NCBI GenBank assembly: GCA_041658075.1
Contig: JBBAAW010000001.1
Span: forward strand, 24,778-88,777
Reading direction: 5' to 3'
Length of the DNA: 64,000 nucleotides
Origin: Patescibacteria group bacterium
GTDB lineage: Bacteria; Patescibacteriota; WWE3; UBA101185; UBA10185
Below the pieces are notes generated by a model. It saw only the letters and a program-made list of their open reading frames with translations, was not told the origin of the DNA and ran no database searches. Position 1 is the first letter of the stretch. The number at the start of each line of letters is the position of its first letter. The translations under genes were made by a program, and so were the position numbers. This document shows positions 2,401 through 22,407 of the stretch, in pieces.

Positions 2401-3516
2401 CTATATCAAGCTAACCGACCTGTACAGGTTATTAAGTAATCTACTTTTATCGTTTTCCTTTGCCCAATTAAGCGCTTTATCTCTCATGTCAGAATAAAGG
2501 TTGGTGTCCGACATTAATCTTTCCAGACCTTCCGCAAGCTCTTTGACATTTTCGCAAAGTATTAACAAGCCTCTCTCGTAAGCCTCAACAGCTGTTGATA
2601 TATTTCTGTTGCACACAACGGGCAAACCCGATGCAGCGTATTCTCGAATTTTTAAAGAGTCGGCGTATTTTTCAAATGATTTTACGTTTTCGTACCAGGC
2701 TACACCGATATAAGATTTTGACATTATTTTTATGTTAGTTTGATAGTCAACAAGACCGTGTAATATTACTATATTTTCTAAATTACGCCGGCTTGCTTTT
2801 CCAATAACATTTAATTTTATTGACGGAAACTTTTCCTTTAACAACGACGTTAAATCCAGCAACATGTCGATTTCGGTGTCACTAATGTTAGATTTTGTAT
2901 AAACTAACTCGTAACGATCTTTCTCTTTTGGGTCTATACGCGCGGCATGTTCATAATCAGGGGAGTTTGGCAAGAATACTGCTCTATCCGGATTTTTAAC
3001 GCGTGGCTGTACAATTTCCCGCATGTTTTTGCTTACATATGTTACAAAAGATGCGTGAGCAATGGAGAAATAGTAAATTTTTCTATAGAAAGCATCAAGC
3101 AATTTTATTTCAAATCGACATTCTGAAAAATCTACGGCATGAAACTGCACAGGCGTTTTTCTCAGGAGACTAACGACATAAGCTGACACAAAGTTGAGTG
3201 GATCTACGGCAATAATTAGGTCAATTTTCCCATACGAGAGAGTTTTAAAAATATTAAACACTATTTCGATTGGCCACCTGATTACGCCGGAAAATGGGAT
3301 TTTGTACTCCCGGATTTGTTCTCCGTTTTTTATTCTTGAGCTGTGTACTCCGGCAAGCGGATGCTCAATAAATATTACTTCAAATCCTGTATTCTCGAGA
3401 AAGGAGGTAACATAGTCTATTCCTCCTGGTTTGATTCCCGTTGCCGTGAATATTCTGTGTACAAGGATAACTACTTTTTTTCTTGTTGTTGGTGTTGTCA
3501 TAATGTCTTGTTCCAA
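2401..3516 (-). CDS. Glycosyltransferase family 1 (GT4)
   Basis: C-terminal GT1 domain (KIREYAASGLPVVCNRN). Confidence 0.7.
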   Translation of the reverse strand: MEQDIMTTPTTRKKVVILVHRIFTATGIKPGGIDYVTSFLENTGFEVIFIEHPLAGVHSSRIKNGEQIREYKIPFSGVIRWPIEIVFNIFKTLSYGKIDLIIAVDPLNFVSAYVVSLLRKTPVQFHAVDFSECRFEIKLLDAFYRKIYYFSIAHASFVTYVSKNMREIVQPRVKNPDRAVFLPNSPDYEHAARIDPKEKDRYELVYTKSNISDTEIDMLLDLTSLLKEKFPSIKLNVIGKASRRNLENIVILHGLVDYQTNIKIMSKSYIGVAWYENVKSFEKYADSLKIREYAASGLPVVCNRNISTAVEAYERGLLILCENVKELAEGLERLMSDTNLYSDMRDKALNWAKENDKSRLLNNLYRSVSLI

Positions 3517-7265: not shown

Positions 7266-8179
7266 TTTTGTAGTACCTTTCTGTAAATTGATTCTCCGTC
7301 CAGTCCAAGGTATTGATACAGCTCCTGCTTGTGACCGTAAATGTCAAGGTACTTATCGTCTATACCAATACGAGTAAGCATGGGCTTTGTACCGGCTGGT
7401 AATTCGGCAACCAATTCGGCTATCACAGACCCCAGCCCGCCAATTACGCTATGTTCTTCAACGGTGAATAGATATTTTGCCTTACTGATGATGTTTATAA
7501 TCTCCTTATTCAGAGGCTTTATAGTGTTTATACCCACTACTGTGGGATCTATTCCTTTCTTTGTTAATCTCTCTTCGGCCAATAAGCTTTCTTTTACTGT
7601 CTCTCCAAAGGAGATAATTACCACTTGACTGTTTCCCCTGCGAGCGATTCTATAATCTGCGAATTTGTTATTGTTTGTTTGGTTTTCGGTTTGTTCTGGC
7701 AAGTTCAGCGTCAGCCTAATATAAGTTGGTCCGTCTATTCGAGCGGCTTCTCTAAGTGTCTTTTCGGTTCCCTCTGCATTTTCCGGGGTAAATATTCGCA
7801 TTCCGGGAATTGTTCTCATGATGGCAATATCCTCAATTGAATGGTGGGTGGCACCCAGGGAACTGTAGGAGACTCCGCTTCCTATTCCTACAATTTTTAC
7901 ATTTGCGCTATGGCAGCCAACCCCCACGCGTATTTGGTCAAAGACTCTGGATGTAATAAACGGCGTTATAGTATATGCAAATGGTTTCCACCCATCAAGA
8001 GCCATTCCTGCCGCCGCGCTGATCATTGCAGCCTCGGAAATTCCCACATTAAAAAATCTGTCCGGGTATTTATCCTTAATCTTTCTAAGAAGAAAGGCAC
8101 CGATATCACCCAGGAACAATACCACTTTGGGATCTTCATCAAACAACTTCTCTATTGTTTTAACAAAGGTTTTTCTCAT
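7244..8179 (-). CDS. Transketolase, C-terminal (pyrimidine-binding + C-terminal) subunit of a split transketolase
   Basis: FNVGISEAAMISAAAGMALDGWKPFAYTITPF signature. The ORF track start at 8305 is a TTG extension; the internal ATG at 8179 gives a 20-nt overlap with the upstream subunit gene. Confidence 0.8.
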   Translation of the reverse strand: MRKTFVKTIEKLFDEDPKVVLFLGDIGAFLLRKIKDKYPDRFFNVGISEAAMISAAAGMALDGWKPFAYTITPFITSRVFDQIRVGVGCHSANVKIVGIGSGVSYSSLGATHHSIEDIAIMRTIPGMRIFTPENAEGTEKTLREAARIDGPTYIRLTLNLPEQTENQTNNNKFADYRIARRGNSQVVIISFGETVKESLLAEERLTKKGIDPTVVGINTIKPLNKEIINIISKAKYLFTVEEHSVIGGLGSVIAELVAELPAGTKPMLTRIGIDDKYLDIYGHKQELYQYLGLDGESIYRKVLQKCKKRQK

Positions 8180-9029
8180 AGTGTTTTTCTTGTAGGTCAA
8201 GCTCTTCCATTGCTTTAAGATATTCTTCTTCCGTTGGAATTCCGGTATGCCATTTGTTATCGTTTTCCATAAACGGTATACCTTTTCCTTTAACTGTGTG
8301 GGCAATCAAAGCTGTAGGTTTACCTTTGATTAACGGACATTTAATTAGTGCGCCATAAATTTTGTTAATATCATGTCCTTCCACATCTAGAGTTTCCCAA
8401 CCAAAAGCCGACCATTTTAACTTTAGGTCATGTGGATCTTGCACGGCAACAGCACTCCCACTTGATTGCATTTCGTTATTGTCCAATATAACTACCAGAT
8501 TATCCAACTTTTGGTGAGAGGCTATAGCTGCCGCTTCCCATGTTGACCCCTCGTTGCATTCTCCATCTCCAACCACGCAAAATATCTTGCGGTGCGACTT
8601 TTCTAATTTTGCCGCCATGGCAAACCCCACACCCATGGGAAATCCATGTCCTAAAGAACCGGTGGATACTTCAACGCCTGGAATTTTATTATGGTCAGGG
8701 TGGCCGCCAAGGATTCCATTTCTTGTGCAAAACTTTTCAAGCTCATCCATAGGGAAAAATCTCCGTCTCGCCAACACAGAATACAAAGATACACAGCCGT
8801 GCCCTTTACTAAGAATAAATCTATCCCTTTCTTTATTTGATAAATCCCGCTTATCTATCTTGAGAATTTTTGAATAAAGTACTACCAGCATTTCTACTAT
8901 AGACATAGCCGCCCCAATATGTCCGTCTTTAGATCCGTAGATCATTCTTATTACATCTCGTCTTACTTGAATGGCCAGCTTCTTGAGCTTTGTTATTTCC
9001 GCTTTATTCATGTTCATATTCTGTTTCAT
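8160..9029 (-). CDS. Transketolase, N-terminal (ThDP-binding) subunit of a split transketolase
   Basis: GHIGAAMSIVEML...SKGHG...GSLGHGFPMGVGFA thiamine-diphosphate binding motifs. Confidence 0.85.
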   Translation of the reverse strand: MKQNMNMNKAEITKLKKLAIQVRRDVIRMIYGSKDGHIGAAMSIVEMLVVLYSKILKIDKRDLSNKERDRFILSKGHGCVSLYSVLARRRFFPMDELEKFCTRNGILGGHPDHNKIPGVEVSTGSLGHGFPMGVGFAMAAKLEKSHRKIFCVVGDGECNEGSTWEAAAIASHQKLDNLVVILDNNEMQSSGSAVAVQDPHDLKLKWSAFGWETLDVEGHDINKIYGALIKCPLIKGKPTALIAHTVKGKGIPFMENDNKWHTGIPTEEEYLKAMEELDLQEKHYEKNLC

Positions 9030-10195
9030 TTTTTTAACAAGCTACAAAGCAACTCAAGCTCGCCTTTTGTTAGTTCAGGGTTATTAGCAATGTAAAAGCC
9101 ATTTTCGTGAACTAATTCGCTTACGGGTGTTTCGTATGTTTTTGAAATGTATTTTTTAAAGAAGGGCTGTCTTGTTATATTTCCCGCGATAACAGGTCTA
9201 ATTTCAATGTCGTGCTTTATGAACCTATCGCGGTATTTTCTATACAAAACTTTAGTCTTAAAAATTAAGGGATAGGTAAAGTTAGAAACCAGCGACATAT
9301 AAGGTACATTGTAATGATATAAGTGATTGTTGCTATTGGCTGTCTTTTCGTATAGTTTATAGTTACTTTCTCTTTTGCCAACAACCTCATCCCAATAATT
9401 TATCTGTACATTTCCAATAAAACCCTGGATATCTGTAGGTCTAACATTATAGGCTAGGTCGTAAAAAGTATATTTGGACACAAACGGATCAATTTTGTGT
9501 TTTTTTATTAGATCGGTGCGCGCTTTCTCGGGAATGTTTCTGTCCCACCCATGGGCCCTCACCATACAAAGCATGTGGTAAAATTCCTCATCATCCGTAC
9601 ACACCATGCCCCCTTCAATTGTGGACAAGTGGTGTCCAACATAGGTTGAGAAAGTTGAAGCAAACCCAAAGTTTCCTAATAATGTACTGCCGATTTTTGA
9701 ACCTAGTGCTTCGCAATTGTCCTCTATAAGAATTATTTTGTTTTCCTTACAGAACGACGCTATTTTATTTAGTTCTCCGCCAAACCCCAAAACATTAGTA
9801 ACAAAAAGAGCCTTAAACTTATCTTTACTATAGGAGGCTTTGATGGTCTTAACGGAAATGTTTAAACTCTCAAGTTCGCAGTCAACGGGGATAGGTTCAA
9901 GACCCAGCTGTATGAGGGGCATTACATTTGTAGCCCATGTTATTGTTGAAAACCCAACTTTATCCCCCTTTGATATTTTACCCGTATTTAACAATGCTTG
10001 AATGAGTGCTAAATTTGCGGCACTTCCGTTAGAGACAAACAACGCGTATTTTCTACCTTGTTTTTCTGCAAACAGCCTTTCAAACTTTCTACACTCATCG
10101 TACATACTTAATATATCGGCCTTTTTGATAAACTCGGCCAGTTTTTTCTTTGTTTCTTTCTCTTTGTAAAATGTTGAACGAATTAGCTTTAGCAT
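9026..10195 (-). CDS. DegT/DnrJ/EryC1/StrS-family PLP-dependent nucleotide-sugar aminotransferase
   Basis: 389 aa, fold-type I aminotransferase pattern. Sits in an operon with gmd. Confidence 0.75.
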   Translation of the reverse strand: MLKLIRSTFYKEKETKKKLAEFIKKADILSMYDECRKFERLFAEKQGRKYALFVSNGSAANLALIQALLNTGKISKGDKVGFSTITWATNVMPLIQLGLEPIPVDCELESLNISVKTIKASYSKDKFKALFVTNVLGFGGELNKIASFCKENKIILIEDNCEALGSKIGSTLLGNFGFASTFSTYVGHHLSTIEGGMVCTDDEEFYHMLCMVRAHGWDRNIPEKARTDLIKKHKIDPFVSKYTFYDLAYNVRPTDIQGFIGNVQINYWDEVVGKRESNYKLYEKTANSNNHLYHYNVPYMSLVSNFTYPLIFKTKVLYRKYRDRFIKHDIEIRPVIAGNITRQPFFKKYISKTYETPVSELVHENGFYIANNPELTKGELELLCSLLKK

Positions 10196-10198
10196 AAG

Positions 10199-11254
10199 TT
10201 AGTAGTTGAGGTATCCGTTGTTTAACCCTTCGTTTTTGATATCAAACTCGACCATTTCTTTGACCAGTTCTTTAAAGTTGTGTCTAGGTTTCCAACCAAG
10301 GATTTTTCTGGCCTTTGAAGGGTCACCAAGCAAAAATTCAACTTCGGAAGGTCTAAAGTATTGTGGGTCGATTTTAACATATGTCTTCTTTGTTTTTGTA
10401 TCATAACCTATTTCTTTTAGCCCCTTGCCGGTCCATTTTATTTTGATTCCAATATGTTCAAACGCCAGCTCCACAAACTCCTTTACGGTGTGGGTTTCTC
10501 CTGTGGCTACAATAAAGTCATCCGGTTCTTTGTGTTGCATCATTAGATACATCGCTTCCACATAATCCTTTGCGTGTCCCCAATCTCGAGACGTATGGAT
10601 GTTACCCAGATACAATATCTTTTGTTTTTTATGGAAAATGTCAGCTACAGCTCTGGTGATTTTTCTAGTCACAAAAGTTCTACCTCTCCTTGGCGACTCG
10701 TGGTTAAAAAGTATTCCATTGCAAGCAAAAGTCCCGTAACTATCGCGGTAGTTTTTAACCGTCCAATAAGAAAAAACCTTTGATATGGCATAGGGAGATT
10801 GGGGGTTAAAGGGGGTAGTTTCCTTTTGAGGAGTTTCAAGAACTTTTCCAAACATTTCGCTTGAGGAAGCTTGATAAAATTTGGTTTGTGGACTTGTGTG
10901 CCTAACGGCCTGTAACAACCTTAGCGTTCCCAGAGCATCTACATCGCAGGTGTATTCGGGAATATTAAAGCTTACGCCAACGTGACTCTGTGCTCCTAGA
11001 TTGTATATCTCGGTTGGTTTGAGTCGGGCGACAAGTTCTATAAGACTGGATGAATCTGAAAGATCGCCGTAATGAAGCTGCACATCCCCTGAAGAGAAGT
11101 TCTTCTCAATTATATGGTCTATTCTGGATGAATTAAAAAGGCTGGTTCTTCTACGCAAACCATGGACCTGATACCCTTTTTGTAAGAGTAGCTCCGCCAG
11201 GTATGATCCGTCCTGTCCAGTTATTCCTGTAATAAAAGCTCGTTTTTGTGTCAT
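10199..11254 (-). CDS. gmd: GDP-mannose 4,6-dehydratase
   Basis: N-terminus [33 protein letters not shown] is the canonical GMD signature. 351 aa. Confidence 0.9.
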
Positions 11255-12335: not shown

Positions 12336-13150
12336 TTATTTCTCTAGAATAATCCGATGAGATAGATAGCGTCCAAAGACCTGGGCCGCACCCATATCGG
12401 GAATGTAAACCTTTACCCTATTTTCATCAGAGTCGGGCAAGTCCTCAAGGCGCAGGGTTACACCTTGCTCGTCTAGGAACTTCGCCACTTGCTCATCTTT
12501 CACAAGCGCTTCGTAATGGGGATCATAAAATTCCCAGCTTTTAGTTGTTTCGTTGTACCTCATTTTGGGAGAGGTAGGACCTATAAATGCTTTCCCGCCA
12601 TGCTTTAGCACACGGCATATATCCATGATTCCTTCCTGCCAAATTTCTTTATTATGAATGTGCTCGGCTACATGGAATACTAATATGGTGTCAAAAGTTT
12701 CGTCTACAAAAGGTAAATCGTTCAAGAGCCCCGCCACCCCCATTAGTTTTGTTTGGTATTTACGAGCGGCTGATATTATTGCCGTGTTTCTGTATTTCTG
12801 AAACATAAAATCAGGACTTAACTCAAACACTTTTGCCCCGCAGTCTCTTTCTCTCAATTCTGTGGCTATCTTGACTTCAGAGCCGGCACCAAGATCCAAT
12901 ATAACTTTATCGTTTAAATCACTTTCGCTGAATCCAAGTGCATTTTGATATTGTTCTAGGGTTCGTCCGCCTTCAGGCACGGTCACATTTTTGTGGTCTA
13001 TGGTTCCAGCCTCCCAACCCTTCCCTCCCTTTATCACCTCATGCACGGCATCTTCTGAGGGTTCGCTCGTACTGTTTTTACCGGCAAAAGTATCTCCGAT
13101 TCTTCTTTCGAATTCAACAATGCTTTCAACAAATTTCATGTTCATTTGAT
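12336..13150 (-). CDS. Class I SAM-dependent methyltransferase
   Basis: ILDLGAGSEV motif I, FHVAEHI motif. Start taken at the internal ATG (MNMKF), because the upstream extension overlaps the divergent promoter region. Confidence 0.6.
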
Positions 13151-13209
13151 AATAAAGGAAAAGTCTAATTTTCTCAATTTGTATGCACATTATTACAACC
13201 CTATAGTAT

Positions 13210-13238
13210 TTGACGATATAGACTTTTTGGCGTAAAAT
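13210..13238 (+). promoter_or_regulatory. Sigma70-type promoter TTGACG-17nt-TAAAAT, followed by SD AGAGGTG, driving the GC-rich ORF
   Basis: Near-consensus -35 and -10 with a 17-nt spacer, read directly from the sequence. SD lies 5 nt before the ATG at 13289. Confidence 0.5.
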
Positions 13239-13288
13239 AGCCGTATCTAGCAATCCAGCTAGTCTTGAAAACAAAATAGAGGTGAAAA

Positions 13289-14032
13289 ATGGACGCGTAT
13301 CTGCGTGCACTTGAGCAACAGTTGGAGCCGCTGTACCACATTCCCCATGTCGTTGGGGGGCACGAGATCAGTCATGTGAGGATGATGTTGGCGCGAGCTA
13401 AAGGGGTGCTTGAGGCGATCAGCCGATACTACCCCGGCCTCGACCCGGCAGACGATGGAACTTTCACAGAGCTTCTTGCCGCTATTTGGTGGCACAACGT
13501 CGACCGGGTTCGGGAGTGGAAAGTAGATGTACAGAAAGCGGGGGGTGACGAGCCTTATGTGCTGATGCAGCTCGCTGACAGTCCTTTCGAAAACGACGCG
13601 CGTGCGCGCATCGCGTACGCGGTGGCAAACCACTCTCAGAGGGAGTGTCAAATCGGTGAACATCCCTGGTTGCTGGTTGCCTTGATGGACCTGGACAAGA
13701 TGGTCAGGCTATTCCCGCTCAATGTCATCGAAGGGGCACAACACCAGCTCGAGGATAACCCGATATACGATCCGGAACCGGAACACCTCTTCGACTACAA
13801 GAAGGCACGCCGAAGCTTATGGCGCGCATTCATGTGGAACTTGGAGTGGGTGCCCATGCTTTCTTGTGACGAGGTGCGTGCGTTGATTGAGAAAGCACAC
13901 TTCCGTGCGTTCATCGACTTCCTGCGGGCTCTGGGGGCTGACATCGCGGAGCGTGAGGGAGTGCCGAACGGAGTCGAAGGGCAGATTGAACTAGCTCTGG
14001 GTGAATATTACCAGGAGTTTGCCTGCTCGTGA
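13289..14032 (+). CDS. Hypothetical protein encoded in a GC-rich (~58%) island
   Basis: 247-aa ORF with strong promoter and SD. Compositionally foreign. No family recognised (His-rich N-terminus HVVGGHEISH). Confidence 0.5.
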   Translation: MDAYLRALEQQLEPLYHIPHVVGGHEISHVRMMLARAKGVLEAISRYYPGLDPADDGTFTELLAAIWWHNVDRVREWKVDVQKAGGDEPYVLMQLADSPFENDARARIAYAVANHSQRECQIGEHPWLLVALMDLDKMVRLFPLNVIEGAQHQLEDNPIYDPEPEHLFDYKKARRSLWRAFMWNLEWVPMLSCDEVRALIEKAHFRAFIDFLRALGADIAEREGVPNGVEGQIELALGEYYQEFACS

Positions 14033-14145
14033 ACTTGCCTAACCGGTGGCAAGGGGGGCTACCTACAACAAAAGCATAATCTTTGTTGCAAGGGGCCTCC
14101 AATTCTTTTCATTGGATTGACAGAAGCAGGCATTAAAGCCAAAAT

Positions 14146-17100
14146 GTGAGGATAAAATCGCCTGATAGCAAGAACATGACAAAGGTGCCCGGTAAAATTC
14201 TCATCTTTTTTCAAGCCTACAAAAGTTTCTTATCCAGACATCCCGTTGTTTCATTAATACTAAATATCCTCTGGCCGCTTCTTATCTTTCTGTGGGTTGT
14301 TTTTATCAACCGTTTTCCACAGGGCTACATTTATGTTAGTGGAGATTTTGCTCAGCCAATAAACATAGAAAACATTTTCAAAAACCTTTTTTACACTTGG
14401 GGTAATGGTATATCAGCTCCCAGCGAGGGAGGATTCTTCTCCTGGTTTGCGGCTTCTCCGTATTATTTTATCTTCTATCTTCTGCCCCACAAACTGGGTC
14501 TTAACGACACTAATATTTTGTCGTACGTACTTTTTCTTTTCTTATCACTTTCCTACTTTTCCTTCTTGTTGGCCTTAAAACTTATCTTCAAAGAAAAACT
14601 TACTGTTTTTACCAGAGTTTTTTCGCTTATCTATTCAATAAACCTCACAACTATATATTTCTACACTTACACGTGGGGTTTTTCACACCAAGTTTTTTTA
14701 TATATAACCCTTCCTTTATTGGGTGCGGTATTCTACCGTTACATTTCTAAACCTTCCCTTAATAATACGTTAGCCTTTCTTGTCTTGCTCTTTTTGTCTA
14801 TCCCCGGTTTTACTAATGTAGCGTTTTTCGTTTCTTTATGTCTATTTTTTTGTCTATTTTTGGCTTTTTCTATTCTGTTAAAAGTCGTTGTTATAAATAG
14901 GAAACTTGTTTTATCATTATTAATTCTTTCGATACTTTCTCTGCTGACTCTATCAGTTTGGGTTGCGCCTACTTACATGGCTTTACGGGGCGAATTATCG
15001 AGTTTGGCCGGTGGAATGTTTAACTTTAATCTATGGCTCAGAACCCAGTCGGCGGATATCTTGTCCATCCTGATAGGTTTACCAGGTTATGGAGGGTTCT
15101 TTCCGTTTTCTCACAACCGTTGGTTTCTTTATCTGTTTCCGTTTATTCCAATACTTCTACTTGTAGTGTTTTTAATAAAGTCAAAGAATGAACCCGCCGT
15201 TTTGCGTAAAAGACTGTCTTTAGTCTTGCTTTCAATCTGTGTTATTTTTATGTTTCTAATAAAAAAAGGGCAAGGTCCATTTGGCGAACTCACTTTAAAG
15301 GTTTTTTCCGTTATTCCTCTTTTATCTATATTTAGAAGCTACGAAAAAATCGCTCTTTTTATGCCTTTTTTGATGCTTACTGCCATTTACGGTCTCATAC
15401 CCTTAAAATTTACCGCTAACAAATATATCTACGTTGTTTTAGTGGCGACTTTGTTTGCAGGAGCTCCATTTTTAATGGGTGGCATTCAAACTAAATACAG
15501 CATAACTTTGGGCGACGATCCTACAAAGGACTACACAACTTCAAAGTATTCTGGTTTAGTTAAAATTCCTTCCGACTACTATAAAATCGCCGATATTGTG
15601 AATGCAGATACTCAGGATTCAAAGGTTCAGGATCTGCCATTCAGTGTGTTGAACACACCTGCGTGGGTAAATTACATAAAATGGAAATTAATTGGATTTA
15701 ACGTTACACAGAATCTTTTGGTAAAGCCCACCATTGGACAAAATGCCTCACAGCTAAACTTATTTAACTGGTCGCCCACTGCAGAATTTAATGGGACTCG
15801 TTTAAATCCAGAGTGGTATATAAAACTGCTTTCATACTTTAACGTTTCCCACCTTATTTACCATAAAGGTGTGGCCGATCAGTTTATCTCTCAGTCACTG
15901 CCTAAAGTTCAGGAATTAGAAAAGGAGGGTTTAATATCTAATCTATATGATGGAGAGTCTGCCTCTCTTTACAAGGTGGACGATAAATATGTTCTGCCTA
16001 GTTTTTACGTTCCCAAAGAAACATTGTTTGTGTATGACGAATTAAGATTTTTTCCGTACCTACTCCTTGTTCCGGATTACGACAAACAAACAAACTACCT
16101 TTTTAAAGAGGTTAACAAACCGACTTTGGATGAACAAAATACGAAGACAGTTGTAATATTGGAGGAACTCATCTCTTTGGATACTCTTATGGATAACACA
16201 TGGAGTCCAGCGTGGGTATGGCCCCCACAGAATGACTCCAAGGATCAAGTTGACATTCAATTGCTAAATATTGTACGGGTGGCGTTTGAGATGAAGTCGC
16301 AAAACCTATACCATAACCAACCACTGCAGGGAGAAATAGCCTTCGCACTGCAAGGATTAAAGTTGGCCGTGGAAGAAGAACTAAAGACGCGTACCCAGGT
16401 TACAGAACGTAATAAAATTATCGAAAAAGTTCTTAAGAATCTTATAATGGTTAATGTTGAGTATGGCGACCAGGGAGATGTCCACAACTTTTTTCTTTCT
16501 CTTCTGTATAATTTTGACTCTTGGGCGTTAGTAAAAGGCTGCATGTTCAGCTGCTACCCTATGGAAATTCCGGAGACCGGGGATTACGAAATCCTTGTTG
16601 AAAACTTAGACGATGCCGCCAAAAACGCAAGAATCTATTTTAAAGATAGAAACACGGGCGCTACTTTGTCCGGAGAAGCTACTCAAAACCTAAGTAAATC
16701 GAATAACGACTATGTAAATTACGGAGTTATATCCTTTACTAAGGGTAACTCTTTGTTTTTAGATTTTTACCATCGGTCGCAGATATTTCTCAAGATGTCG
16801 GAGTGGAAAAAGGAGACTGTGGACGGAAAAAACAGTATAAGCAGAGAGCTGTTAAATTTAGAACCAAATCGGAGATATCAGGTTTCCATTAAATACAATG
16901 GAGATTTAGATTCAGTTTCTTTTACGATTGTTGAGGATAGCTCTGTTCCAAATGCATCGGTACTACAGTTGGGAGAGATCTTAAAAAAGACGGGGCAGGA
17001 CCCATTCTTCTTTGCAGGAAATGTCGGTGGAACAAGCAAGCTTTATCTTTACAACAAGGACGGAAAGGATATTAACTCTTTAGATATTGGCGATATAAGG

Positions 17101-17523
17101 GTGGAGGAGATCTTTAGTCCCAAAATAATTCTGAAACAAACTAAAACATCAATCGGCACATCTCCGGAGAGTCCGGAAATACAAATAAAAAAGGTTAATC
17201 CAACCAAATACCTTATTTTAGTTAGCAAAGCAACCGGTCCGTATTCTCTGGTATTTAGTGAAAGTTTTCATAGTCAATGGAAGCTGTATCTTAAGGGAAA
17301 AGAGATAGCTAAGGATAATCATTTTGTGGCAAACGGCTACGCTAACTACTGGGTAATCAACCCCCAAGATACGGAGAATCTAAGTTCGTATGATCTTGTA
17401 GTGGAATACAGACCCCAAATTCTATTTTATTATGGCGCAATAATTTCCCTTTCGACTTTGTTTCTTCTCTTTTTAGTACTATGTCTAAGAAAAATTATCC
17501 AAAAAGGAAAAACTTATGAGTAA
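14146..17523 (+). CDS. Giant integral membrane protein (1125 aa), GT-C/AftD-like architecture: ~11 N-terminal TM helices, a large extracytoplasmic domain, a C-terminal TM anchor
   Basis: Hydrophobic N-terminal 450 aa, soluble middle part, C-terminal TM (IISLSTLFLLFLVLCL). The only long plus-strand gene inside the minus-strand cluster. Confidence 0.5.
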   Translation: MRIKSPDSKNMTKVPGKILIFFQAYKSFLSRHPVVSLILNILWPLLIFLWVVFINRFPQGYIYVSGDFAQPINIENIFKNLFYTWGNGISAPSEGGFFSWFAASPYYFIFYLLPHKLGLNDTNILSYVLFLFLSLSYFSFLLALKLIFKEKLTVFTRVFSLIYSINLTTIYFYTYTWGFSHQVFLYITLPLLGAVFYRYISKPSLNNTLAFLVLLFLSIPGFTNVAFFVSLCLFFCLFLAFSILLKVVVINRKLVLSLLILSILSLLTLSVWVAPTYMALRGELSSLAGGMFNFNLWLRTQSADILSILIGLPGYGGFFPFSHNRWFLYLFPFIPILLLVVFLIKSKNEPAVLRKRLSLVLLSICVIFMFLIKKGQGPFGELTLKVFSVIPLLSIFRSYEKIALFMPFLMLTAIYGLIPLKFTANKYIYVVLVATLFAGAPFLMGGIQTKYSITLGDDPTKDYTTSKYSGLVKIPSDYYKIADIVNADTQDSKVQDLPFSVLNTPAWVNYIKWKLIGFNVTQNLLVKPTIGQNASQLNLFNWSPTAEFNGTRLNPEWYIKLLSYFNVSHLIYHKGVADQFISQSLPKVQELEKEGLISNLYDGESASLYKVDDKYVLPSFYVPKETLFVYDELRFFPYLLLVPDYDKQTNYLFKEVNKPTLDEQNTKTVVILEELISLDTLMDNTWSPAWVWPPQNDSKDQVDIQLLNIVRVAFEMKSQNLYHNQPLQGEIAFALQGLKLAVEEELKTRTQVTERNKIIEKVLKNLIMVNVEYGDQGDVHNFFLSLLYNFDSWALVKGCMFSCYPMEIPETGDYEILVENLDDAAKNARIYFKDRNTGATLSGEATQNLSKSNNDYVNYGVISFTKGNSLFLDFYHRSQIFLKMSEWKKETVDGKNSISRELLNLEPNRRYQVSIKYNGDLDSVSFTIVEDSSVPNASVLQLGEILKKTGQDPFFFAGNVGGTSKLYLYNKDGKDINSLDIGDIRVEEIFSPKIILKQTKTSIGTSPESPEIQIKKVNPTKYLILVSKATGPYSLVFSESFHSQWKLYLKGKEIAKDNHFVANGYANYWVINPQDTENLSSYDLVVEYRPQILFYYGAIISLSTLFLLFLVLCLRKIIQKGKTYE

Positions 17524-17896
17524 AAAGCATCACAAAGATCAGCCGTTAGTGGAGAGTTACACGGACTCTGTATTGGAGAGCGGGATGTTCTGGTTATTTG
17601 CGTCAATTACCTTTGTGGTATTTCTTGAAATGCTTTTCTTTCCCAAAGTTCCTGATCTTTTAGAGCTACTGCTAATATTGCTGTGGCGATTTTCTGTGGA
17701 GAAAAATAAACATCCTCAAAAGATATTAACAGTCTCGGTTTGCGTAATAACACTATTTATCCCCTTCCTTTTAATGATTGGTCGATCCGATCTGGCAAAG
17801 GAATTTGCTATTTGGATGTTTTATATTTTCATTGGCGAGGTTGGTTTGGAGGCATGGAAAATAATAAAACAGGGTTGGAGACCCGATGTCAAATAA
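17516..17896 (+). CDS. Small membrane protein (3 predicted TM helices), translationally coupled to the giant gene
   Basis: ATGAGTAA start/stop overlap. Hydrophobic segments. Confidence 0.4.
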   Translation: MSKKHHKDQPLVESYTDSVLESGMFWLFASITFVVFLEMLFFPKVPDLLELLLILLWRFSVEKNKHPQKILTVSVCVITLFIPFLLMIGRSDLAKEFAIWMFYIFIGEVGLEAWKIIKQGWRPDVK

Positions 17897-20679: not shown

Positions 20680-20764
20680 GAAATCGATTATAGCAGATTT
20701 GAAATAGGGGTTTGGTACCACTCCGCAGACGCGACAAATTATTTTGTCCGCGGAGTGGCCCGTT

Positions 20765-21502
20765 TCAGCCCATGATCTCGGCGATCGATTGCCGAAGCTG
20801 CGAAAGGTATCGCACAGCTTGGGCACGCGTGCCAAAGGTTGGAGCAACTTCGAGCACGATTGACACCTGGGTCTTTGTCTGTGTTGCCAGCAGGCGCAGC
20901 ATGTCCTGTAACTCGCCTTTAGTTTGTCCTGCCAGCAAACTTGAGATCTCCGGCCCCACTGGGTGGACGTGGATCAGGGCGATTTGGTCTTTCCACTTTT
21001 CAAGTAGTCTCTTCCATTGGAACGGGGAGGGGTCCCCGTTTCTGTAGGGTCGGCGCGTGTGCCAGGTGTCCCAACACAAACTGGCAAGTCCGGTGGTAGG
21101 CAGTCCGCCCTCGGGATGCAGCTCATAGACCGATTGTCTCTCTCTGGAGTCGTGAGAGACGTGCAAGGCATTCTGGAAACATCGGCCGAAGATCTGCGGA
21201 TCCATGGGGTCCCTGCCGAATACTACCCAATCGATGGGCAGTGGGTGATCTTCTCCAGCCCGCCCTGTAACCCGTTGTACAACCTTCCAAAGGGAGCCGT
21301 AATTCCAAGCTCCTTCCCAAGCAATTACTCCTCTGTTAGGTAGCCGTCTTACGGAATCCATGCTCCATCCCCGCAAAGGGAGGAGCTGAAGTCCGTTGAA
21401 TCCGGCATCAACGGCCATCTGGTAGGCCCTGACCGGCCCACCCGATCCCAGACTCCATGGAACCAACGACGCGACGCTCACATCGAACCTCCTCGTACCC
21501 AT
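20765..21502 (-). CDS. Xylose-isomerase-like TIM-barrel (sugar phosphate isomerase/epimerase family) protein in a GC-rich (~57%) island
   Basis: LCWDTWH (cf. LDxGH metal-site motif of PF01261). Strong SD AAGGAGAG 6 nt before ATG (MGTRR). Extended -10 TGTTATAAT upstream. Confidence 0.5.
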   Translation of the reverse strand: MGTRRFDVSVASLVPWSLGSGGPVRAYQMAVDAGFNGLQLLPLRGWSMDSVRRLPNRGVIAWEGAWNYGSLWKVVQRVTGRAGEDHPLPIDWVVFGRDPMDPQIFGRCFQNALHVSHDSRERQSVYELHPEGGLPTTGLASLCWDTWHTRRPYRNGDPSPFQWKRLLEKWKDQIALIHVHPVGPEISSLLAGQTKGELQDMLRLLATQTKTQVSIVLEVAPTFGTRAQAVRYLSQLRQSIAEIMG

Positions 21503-21572
21503 GCTGTGCTCTCCTTTCATTCTTCCCACTAATTCCGCCGTGCGTGTTTGCTGATAATATTATAACAAATAT

Positions 21573-21992
21573 TCAGGTTATATGCGTTGTGAGTATAAAA
21601 GTAACTATTCCAACTTCTTGATTCGCAAACAGTTTAATACGATCGTTTGAAAATGACCACAACCATTTTATTCCCCAACCGGTTCCGATGCTATCTAAGA
21701 TAAAATGTGAACATACGCATGTAATAAACATTAAGGCCAATTTGTAGTCAGAAGCTAAAAGTATTAACAGGGAAAGAGATATATAGAGCAAGGAGTAGTG
21801 TGTAATTTCTCTGTGAAACCCGTGCTCTTTACCCCCAAGCCTTTTCCGTTGAAGTAATTCAATAAGGATATCCACATCGGGCAGATAGTTAAAGAAGATA
21901 ATAATCAGTAAAAACGGCAGAGTTAGTTTAAAGCCAAAAATAGAAGAAAATAGTGTGGAAAATATGAAGGCAACTCCGAGATGAGTGAACAC
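21573..21992 (-). CDS. DUF457/YdjM-like membrane-bound metal-dependent hydrolase
   Basis: N-terminal MFTHLG, conserved His residues (HREITH, CSHFILD), 4 hydrophobic segments. Confidence 0.45.
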   Translation of the reverse strand: MFTHLGVAFIFSTLFSSIFGFKLTLPFLLIIIFFNYLPDVDILIELLQRKRLGGKEHGFHREITHYSLLYISLSLLILLASDYKLALMFITCVCSHFILDSIGTGWGIKWLWSFSNDRIKLFANQEVGIVTFILTTHIT

Positions 21993-22043
21993 ACTTAGGA
22001 TTATATCAATAATCAGCCGGTATAACGCACAGGCCTATAGAAT

Positions 22044-22072
22044 TTTACTATTGGCGTGAGGTTTTATATAAT
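22044..22072 (+). promoter_or_regulatory. Sigma70-type promoter TTTACT-17nt-TATAAT upstream of the small GC-rich ORF
   Basis: Perfect -10 TATAAT. Downstream SD GAGGAGGTG and a GTG start at 22114. Confidence 0.45.
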
Positions 22073-22113
22073 AAGTACACAAGCTCGATTAACTCTTGCC
22101 GAGGAGGTGTATC

Positions 22114-22314
22114 GTGGAGATTGCGAGGCTTTCGTGGTCATATGTTATCGACTGTACTTTCGTGCTTTTCGCGGTCTGGTATTTGCGGAGGTTCTTTGTT
22201 GCGGTCTCTGAGAGCGAGGCCGGAATTTATTGGAACGGACCGGCAGTGGTTGGGATTGTGGGCACGATGATGTGGATTCCAATTATCTGCACAATCATCG
22301 ACTGGTTCTTATGA
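22114..22314 (+). CDS. Small (66-aa) two-TM membrane protein in a GC-rich patch
   Basis: Strong SD GAGGAGGTG 5 nt before GTG. Hydrophobic helices. ~58% GC. Confidence 0.4.
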   Translation: MEIARLSWSYVIDCTFVLFAVWYLRRFFVAVSESEAGIYWNGPAVVGIVGTMMWIPIICTIIDWFL

Positions 22315-22407
22315 GCCCCTGCTCCGAGATGTCGAAAAGGCGTCAGACAAGACTGAAGGGTGCAACCGAAGCTGGCTCAGCGGCCAACTATCGAATGTAC
22401 CCTTCTT

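Follow-up and report, generated by a model that had tools for sequence, protein, structure and literature searches.

A stretch of 64,000 nucleotides from the genome of a Patescibacteria group bacterium (contig JBBAAW010000001.1 of assembly GCA_041658075.1; hereafter the window) contains, at positions 13289–14032 of the forward strand, an open reading frame (ORF) of 247 amino acids that is much richer in guanine and cytosine (GC) than the DNA around it. This ORF is a genuine gene with its own transcription signals and is located in a locus for the biosynthesis of cell-surface glycans and nucleoside diphosphate (NDP)-deoxysugars, whilst sequence profile and structural model indicate that it encodes a divergent protein of the HD-domain superfamily. 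On balance we hold it probable that this HD-family gene of the glycan locus is an old import that circulates by recombination among AT-rich relatives and has not ameliorated; a preliminary description of the same DNA had instead seen in it a recent horizontal acquisition from a high-GC donor.

The GC content of the ORF is 56.6% compared to 40.6% for the window as a whole, so that the values of ~58% and ~38% given previously were slightly generous, although the shift itself survives recomputation: the ORF lies ~5 standard deviations (sd) above the distribution of 744-nt windows (mean 0.406, sd 0.032). The excess tracks the ORF closely, with 100-nt windows showing a GC fraction of 0.27–0.36 just 5′ of it, 0.53–0.62 inside and then 0.43 falling to 0.37 on the 3′ side, and it is distributed over codon positions 1/2/3 as 0.67/0.37/0.67. 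Only 2/55 long ORFs of the window are outliers in GC at third codon positions (GC3; mean 0.41, sd 0.06), namely 13289–14032 (0.67) and a second GC-rich gene at 20765–21529 (0.62). The relative synonymous codon usage (RSCU) of the 247-aa gene correlates negatively with that of the host genes (-0.39), and its protein has an amino acid make-up typical of high-GC organisms (Lys 2.8% vs 7.9% in the host, Ala 10.9% vs 6.1%, Arg 6.9% vs 4.0%): composition and codon usage are both foreign-looking.

The GC-rich feature is a single-gene transcription unit on the forward strand, comprising promoter, leader with Shine-Dalgarno (SD) sequence, ORF and terminator. The promoter and SD sequence reported previously are both in place: TTGACG (13210–13215) and TAAAAT (13233–13238), separated by a 17-nt spacer, form a sigma-70-type promoter (13210–13238; 10/12 consensus matches in a promoter scan), and the SD sequence AGAGGTG (13278–13284), 4 nt 5′ of the ATG, is the longest SD match among the 54 ORF starts compared. 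The leader of ~45 nt contains a small hairpin (13247–13262, CTAGC-AATCCA-GCTAG), apparent from the sequence and from the minimum free energy (MFE) fold of the transcript. Corresponding signals are found with the syntenic alleles of two further contigs, L007 (SRR22387966), from a close relative, and L001 (SRR22388171), from a more distant one: L007 has kept the -10 box TAAAAT with TTTACA as -35 box at identical spacing, shows CTAGT-CATCTG-GCTAG at the aligned position of the leader hairpin and has kept the SD sequence TAGAGGTG, in place of which L001 carries AAGGAGAGGG. Downstream of the ORF, a two-hairpin terminator (14034–14110) is predicted by folding, with a hairpin at 14034–14053, a long GC-rich stem with an inner hairpin at 14054–14100 and the T-rich tail AATTCTTTTC; its MFE is -30.4 kcal/mol (z = -3.1 vs shuffles), and the outer GC stem and inner hairpin are also present in L001 (10598–10650) and L007 (~3017–3075). 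The 3′ half of the terminator, TGCAAGGGGCCTC, is kept and 5 pairs are altered on both sides, a covariation that is anecdotal with three sequences only.

The accompanying statement that host genes mostly lack clear SD sites is roughly right, as most of the 54 starts show an SD match of 4 nt or none and few reach at least 5 nt. We also observed that a TA[ATC]AAT hexamer (TAAAAT/TATAAT) ends 6–10 nt, mostly 6–7 nt, before the start codon in 13/54 ORFs compared to 3% of random 22-nt windows (for example at the ORF starts 12292, 20679, 21992, 24371, 25202, 37620, 46325, 48427, 57323 and 63879); together with the scarcity of SD sequences, these start-proximal -10 hexamers suggest that leaderless mRNAs may be widespread in this Patescibacteria genome. 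Both GC-rich genes are leadered and have strong SD sequences. A search of the literature on leaderless translation in Patescibacteria, amelioration and biased gene conversion returned nothing specific to the GC-rich gene.

An abrupt GC step could result from an assembly chimera, in which a GC-rich fragment has been mis-joined into an AT-rich contig, and the step is the only observation that speaks for this. The identical gene with identical junctions is present in five independent assemblies that derive from different pipelines and four samples (ERZ27247322 and ERZ27249422 from ENA, SRR8449812 and SRR8449827 from Logan, and 3300028032 from JGI), whose exact identity to the window spans at least 12569–14204 and hence includes both GC junctions; this excludes the chimera that had been considered in the preliminary description. 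The same AT-rich/GC-rich/AT-rich layout is moreover seen in the syntenic L001 and L007, and the GC step falls exactly at the SD sequence and start codon on one side and at the stop codon and terminator on the other, so that mis-assembly deserves practically no weight. A structured non-coding RNA, with the ORF being spurious, can likewise be set aside with near certainty. In its favour, GC-rich islands in AT-rich genomes are often structured RNAs, the transcript folds with z = -3.9 vs dinucleotide shuffles and there is a long antisense ORF at 13259–13663. However, Rfam identified no RNA family at the GC-rich gene and found only two tRNAs, 40 kb away, upon which the structured-RNA reading was dropped, and the antisense ORF, whose length is not kept between alleles (140, 190, 102 and 55 codons), was rejected as a usual by-product of GC-rich coding sequence. 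The codon-position pattern given above is that of a protein gene, and the window and L001 alleles differ at 83/68/140 sites in codon positions 1/2/3, with proportions of nonsynonymous (pN) and synonymous (pS) differences of 0.28 and 0.79: the excess at third positions and a pN well below pS show that the protein is under purifying selection. Homologous proteins with invariant catalytic-type residues and a structure model that matches HD enzymes, both described below, also argue against a non-coding element, and the identical protein is deposited at NCBI as a hypothetical protein from a Patescibacteria group bacterium metagenome-assembled genome (MAG).

The protein family was uncovered when 1.84 billion cluster representatives were searched exhaustively with phmmer, of which 56 passed E<=1e-3 and 40 also E<=1e-10; a word-indexed homolog search gave only the protein itself and one relative, and 4 proteins were scored when it was rerun with the family alignment. 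All family clusters that were looked up are tiny and bear no source name beyond 'hypothetical protein', and querying viral contigs with the window protein gave no match. In an alignment of 32 members, H29, H69, D72, H115 and D136 are invariant, whilst H25, N70, R73 and R140 each occur in 90% or more of the sequences; the window protein retains all nine of these residues, and the family consensus motifs are GGHDxxH, LHNLDR, HxKKDD and RIADKxDR. Compared to solved structures, the family profile matched E. coli YedJ (3gw7, 6.5e-13), 2pq7 (1.3e-11) and B. subtilis YpgQ (5dqv, 5e-9), as well as 3dto and 3b57, and the structure model of the window protein (predicted local distance difference test score, pLDDT, 95.6) displays the all-alpha HD fold and matches solved HD enzymes. 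Full-length comparison of both profile and fold thus identifies members of the YpgQ/YedJ subfamily as the closest relatives.

Alignment to YedJ, 2pq7 and 3dto places H29 on the His of their H-D-x-x-H motif (equivalent to H29 of YpgQ) and D136 on the Asp of D-A-D-R-L, which is the distal Asp ligand. The adjacent His-Asp dyad of the solved proteins falls on H69-N70 in these alignments and is hence not conserved as such, with the invariant D72 found at +3 from H69, so that the dyad reads H69-N70-x-D72. Three of the four ligand positions of the HD superfamily are therefore occupied as expected, whilst the strict motif is absent and the Pfam model PF01966 does not match the window protein at threshold and matches only 7/32 family members (best E=1.8e-4). 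The previous statement that the protein has no recognisable family holds for direct scans of Pfam and NCBIfam, which are empty, but not for the family profile and the fold, both of which lead to YpgQ/YedJ-type HD proteins: the 247-aa protein represents a rare, unannotated and divergent branch within the HD-domain superfamily, in which the dyad is altered. H29, H69, D72 (and/or N70) and D136 would then hold a divalent metal, and the predicted enzyme would hydrolyse a phosphoester or pyrophosphate bond in an intermediate of the adjacent deoxysugar pathway, be it a nucleotide, a nucleotide-sugar or a sugar phosphate. From ligands and location we infer that it is a metal-dependent phosphohydrolase whose target in this pathway is either phosphorylated or linked to a nucleotide, with the substrate being a guess.

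The gene is located within a cell-surface glycan/NDP-deoxysugar biosynthesis locus of a Patescibacteria genome. On its left, a class I methyltransferase (12336–13146, reverse strand; Pfam Methyltransf_11) is divergently transcribed and shares the intergenic promoter region, an arrangement kept in L007, where this protein is 92% identical; beyond it lies a GDP-mannose-4,6-dehydratase-like NDP-sugar dehydratase (10199–11254, reverse strand; Pfam GDP_Man_Dehyd/Epimerase). The latter is the most constant neighbour of the family, with homologs (53–93% identity) found 0–2 genes from the family member in L001, L007, L008, L013 and L014 and ~5 kb off in L012. The conserved right neighbour of the slot encodes a multi-pass membrane protein of 1115 aa with no Pfam match and its own promoter at 14117–14145 (14176–17523, forward strand; from ORF, Pfam and promoter scans), homologs of which are found directly or nearly downstream of the family member in L001 (64%) and L007 (92%) and upstream in L010 (45%); that it may be a large glycan-processing membrane enzyme is a guess only. 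We further noted a membrane protein of 126 aa (17516–17896, forward strand), also with no Pfam match, which together with the 1115-aa protein accompanies the HD-like gene in the window, L001, L007 and L010 (45–92% identity). The surrounding locus encodes a DegT aminotransferase, split transketolase subunits, epimerases, methyltransferases, an asparagine-synthase-like protein, a B12-radical-SAM enzyme and several glycosyltransferases, and genes for NDP-sugar dehydratases, epimerases, aminotransferases, glycosyltransferases or Wzy surround the family member in 9/10 loci examined.

The history of the gene is best read from the occupants of this slot. In L007, the dehydratase, methyltransferase and membrane protein are 92.8%, 92.1% and 91.7% identical to those of the window and the flanking DNA is 87–95% identical, whereas the slot gene is only 42–45% identical with saturated synonymous sites. 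Boundary alignments and blastn delimit a diverged patch at 13169–14083, which contains the promoter, leader, ORF and 5′ half of the terminator: blastn aligned 12346–13168 at 94.9%, 14084–14177 at 87.2% and 14257–15069 at 86.7%, with only a 51-nt match in between, and DNA identity to L007 is 93% just before the left boundary and 61% just past it. Homology of the AT-rich promoter, -10 box, leader hairpin and SD sequence can still be recognised within the patch, and the terminator keeps its two-level stem-loop with changed sequence. The history of the gene is hence discordant with that of its flanks, and the combination of near-identical flanks with a 42–45% identical gene indicates that homologous recombination has replaced the allele in either the window or the L007 lineage; since the donor possessed the same locus architecture and an AT-rich promoter, it was an AT-rich relative rather than a GC-rich organism. 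In the more distant L001, flanking proteins are 57–79% identical and the family member in the slot ~57%, so that the divergence of the gene equals that of its flanks and fits co-descent. The L001 allele (9833–10585) contains an in-frame TAG at 9975–9977 and the adjacent dehydratase (9129–9667) is broken into different frames, which reflects either a decaying locus or errors in a single Logan contig.

These comparisons bear directly on the claim that the cassette was acquired recently and straight from a high-GC donor, with its composition not yet ameliorated. Foreign composition is confirmed and so is exchange at the site, given flanks 92–93% and a gene 42–45% identical to L007; the term 'recent' is what fails, as the slot is filled in both L007 and L001 and synonymous divergence (dS) is saturated. 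Recent import is nevertheless in keeping with the GC contrast of 56.6% vs 40.6%, the codon usage anticorrelated with the host, the high-GC-type amino acids, the leader and strong SD sequence where many genes look leaderless, and the fact that family members in 49–54% GC contigs match their hosts. Against this, an empty slot was not found in the close relatives, L007 and L001 both having a family member, and the divergence of the L001 gene equals that of its flanks. The AT-rich promoter and terminator are homologous between alleles and diverge along with the ORF. At the patch borders we found no significant direct or inverted flanking repeats, no integron attC-like site, no mobility genes and no tRNA. 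Nor was the postulated donor found: the closest homologs (42–66% identity) are all in 34–42% GC contigs, the search of 1.84 billion representatives brought up no GC-rich near relative, and compositionally matching hosts do not provide the nearest homologs, those in L013 (54% GC) and L081 (49%) being only ~31–36% identical. We therefore regard a recent import from a GC-rich organism as improbable, with the immediate donor being a related AT-rich genome.

Exchange of this kind is not confined to the one slot. The second GC-rich gene, at 20765–21529, has a GC content of 55% and 67% amino acid identity to the allele of the co-occurring strain L077 (ERZ27249422), which is 100% identical on both sides and differs over 20750–22380; this 1.6-kb patch also holds an AT-rich YdjM-like gene with ~78% DNA identity. 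The second gene thus behaves like the first, in that a divergent GC-rich allele arrived together with adjacent AT-rich DNA. A common donor for both GC-rich genes was considered and rejected, the RSCU correlation between them being 0.12. Compared to the co-occurring L004, L005 and L006, which are 100% identical over most of the locus, the window regions 7816–8600 and 14615–14960 are short patches of 87–96% identity. Together, these patches indicate frequent recombination throughout the glycan locus.

The GC excess itself has proven persistent. The window, L001 and L007 alleles all have a GC content of 55–57% and GC3 of 0.66–0.70 within contigs of 40–42% GC, although pS between alleles is 0.73–0.79 and hence saturated. 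Across the family, GC3 lies above that of the neighbours in 6/8 contexts. The excess is smaller in the more distant members of L009 (+0.09), L010 (+0.13), L012 (+0.08) and L014 (+0.13) and is lacking in the two hosts of higher GC (L013, 0.60 vs 0.61; L081, 0.47 vs 0.51); GC3 in the more distant family members is 0.39–0.49. One explanation for such persistence would be that GC-richness is actively maintained, through selection on the coding sequence or mRNA (on its structure, its stability or the translation of a leadered message where most are leaderless) or through GC-biased gene conversion at a recombination hot spot, and is not a foreign leftover. Beyond the GC3 of the three alleles despite saturated dS, this is in line with the coincidence of the GC step with start and stop codons, with the location of both GC-rich genes in recombination-exchanged patches and with the balance of synonymous changes in the window lineage given below. 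Folding provides a further argument: the GC-rich mRNAs (window 13289–14029, the L001 and L007 alleles and 20765–21526) fold at about -0.39 kcal/mol per nt vs about -0.22 for host genes, and compared to synonymous-codon shuffles z is -2.0 for the window gene, -3.6 for L001, -0.9 for L007 and -3.4 for the second gene, whereas host genes gave +0.2 and +0.3. As this test comprised 40 shuffles and 2 control genes only, the extra mRNA stability is suggestive only. L007 does not conform, as its z is small and its polarised synonymous changes show an excess of GC-to-AT (9:2, 9:3 and 13:3; counts small). The AT-rich YdjM gene within the exchanged patch argues against regional gene conversion, the much lower GC3 of the more distant family members likewise speaks against maintenance, and amino acids of the high-GC type point to history rather than to selection at the level of mRNA. 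Active maintenance thus appears possible, albeit on the unlikely side.

We accordingly favour, as stated at the outset, an old import that has since circulated. In this account, a slot bounded by the methyltransferase/dehydratase genes and the gene for the large membrane protein was already present in the common ancestor of at least three lineages, and its occupants are highly divergent alleles that related AT-rich genomes have swapped by homologous recombination, a situation typical of surface-glycan loci. It would be most economical to suppose that the gene was acquired long ago from a GC-richer lineage and then circulated in the AT-rich clade with incomplete amelioration, because those family members whose genomes have 49–54% GC conform to them in composition; the direction and age of this original transfer, and with them the reason for the persistence of GC, are what we infer from these patterns. 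Several points weigh against this reading. With synonymous sites saturated, an old import should by now have ameliorated far towards a GC3 of ~0.4 and it has not, so that the account works only if the source was very GC-rich or if some force keeps GC high. When synonymous changes were polarised, those of the window lineage came out balanced (3:3, 4:4 and 2:7), although these counts are far too small to decide. The slot alleles compared number three (window, L001 and L007), of which that of L001 may be a pseudogene given its in-frame TAG, and repeated independent imports from unsampled GC-rich donors are a possible alternative source of the alleles. Further alleles were sought in metagenome and genome contigs with an 18-mer from the conserved right flank, which gave only chance matches in unrelated organisms, none encoding the family. 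Concerning the protein, direct scans gave no Pfam or NCBIfam match at E up to 10 and no PADLOC match, and the activity of the HD superfamily could be altered or lost because the canonical dyad Asp is Asn. Concerning its pathway, the family member of L081 (6610–7356), on a contig of 49% GC, lies between nusG and rplK and by genes for thymidylate synthase, DHFR, dCMP deaminase and dNMP kinase: in the absence of glycan genes there, the link to glycans is not universal and a plain nucleotide substrate is possible.

Little is understood of the surface glycans of Patescibacteria, also known as the candidate phyla radiation (CPR), which live attached to host cells. Here, single genes of a glycan pathway are swapped between close relatives as very divergent alleles, a pattern also seen where O-antigens and capsules diversify under pressure from phages or hosts. 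A family that no curated database recognises can be given a fold and a likely chemistry, and its change of the HD dyad to H-N-x-D is unusual. That a strong GC excess can outlast saturated synonymous divergence cautions against dating a transfer by atypical composition alone; if the excess were indeed actively maintained, this would make a small and tractable case of what holds the composition of a gene off that of its genome. A more far-reaching proposal, which we put forward tentatively and consider rather doubtful, would join these strands: both single genes and their alleles would be hypervariable, exchanged glycan genes whose GC is held ~16 points above the genome, either by selection on highly structured, leadered, SD-dependent mRNAs in an organism whose other mRNAs are largely leaderless or by GC-biased conversion at hot spots of recombination, and the H-N-x-D proteins would form a functionally new HD branch acting on NDP-deoxysugar intermediates.

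Amongst characterised proteins, the nearest comparison is with B. subtilis YpgQ (PDB 5DQV/5DQW), a Mn-dependent (d)NTP pyrophosphohydrolase with the metal ligands H29, H58, D59 and D124 (PMC8177086). Sequence identity to the window protein is ~14%, and the ligand D59 is matched by Asn70, which lies two residues ahead of an invariant Asp. The substrate Arg of YpgQ, R136, appears to have no counterpart: in the alignment to YedJ, the matching family position (~12 residues past the distal Asp) is not Arg, and an Arg is found 4 residues past D136 instead (R140). The window protein is also ~40–60 residues longer, with extra C-terminal helices, and its gene is placed in a context of glycan biosynthesis, compared to nucleotide housekeeping for YpgQ. 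E. coli YedJ (PDB 3GW7) is the closest by profile (E=6.5e-13), over nearly the full length including the C-terminal helices; it shares the fold of the window protein, as do the structural-genomics homologs 2PQ7, 3DTO, 3B57, 3DJB, 2PJQ and 2QGS. YedJ-type homologs display the canonical HD dyad and match Pfam HD, whilst the window protein matches no curated model. For function in a pathway, a precedent is provided by PenF from Streptomyces antibioticus, a YpgQ-like HD-domain nucleoside 5′-monophosphatase encoded in a biosynthetic gene cluster (PMC11592144). Likened by its description, PenF shows how a YpgQ-like HD enzyme can be recruited as a pathway phosphatase in a sugar/nucleoside cluster, although its motif is the canonical H...HD...D (H27, H56, D57 and D128), unlike H-N-x-D, and its pentostatin/vidarabine pathway is unrelated.

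At the level of the locus, the window resembles O-antigen and capsule loci: it is a surface-glycan locus with sharp divergent patches between near-identical flanks and with atypical composition. Such loci are mosaic, showing atypical GC and highly divergent alleles that are exchanged by recombination in conserved flanks, and in their classical enterobacterial examples the variable genes have a higher AT content than the rest of the genome. Unlike in these cases, the variable genes of the window are ~16 points GC-richer, the anomaly affects single genes and not the whole locus, and the host is a Patescibacteria MAG.

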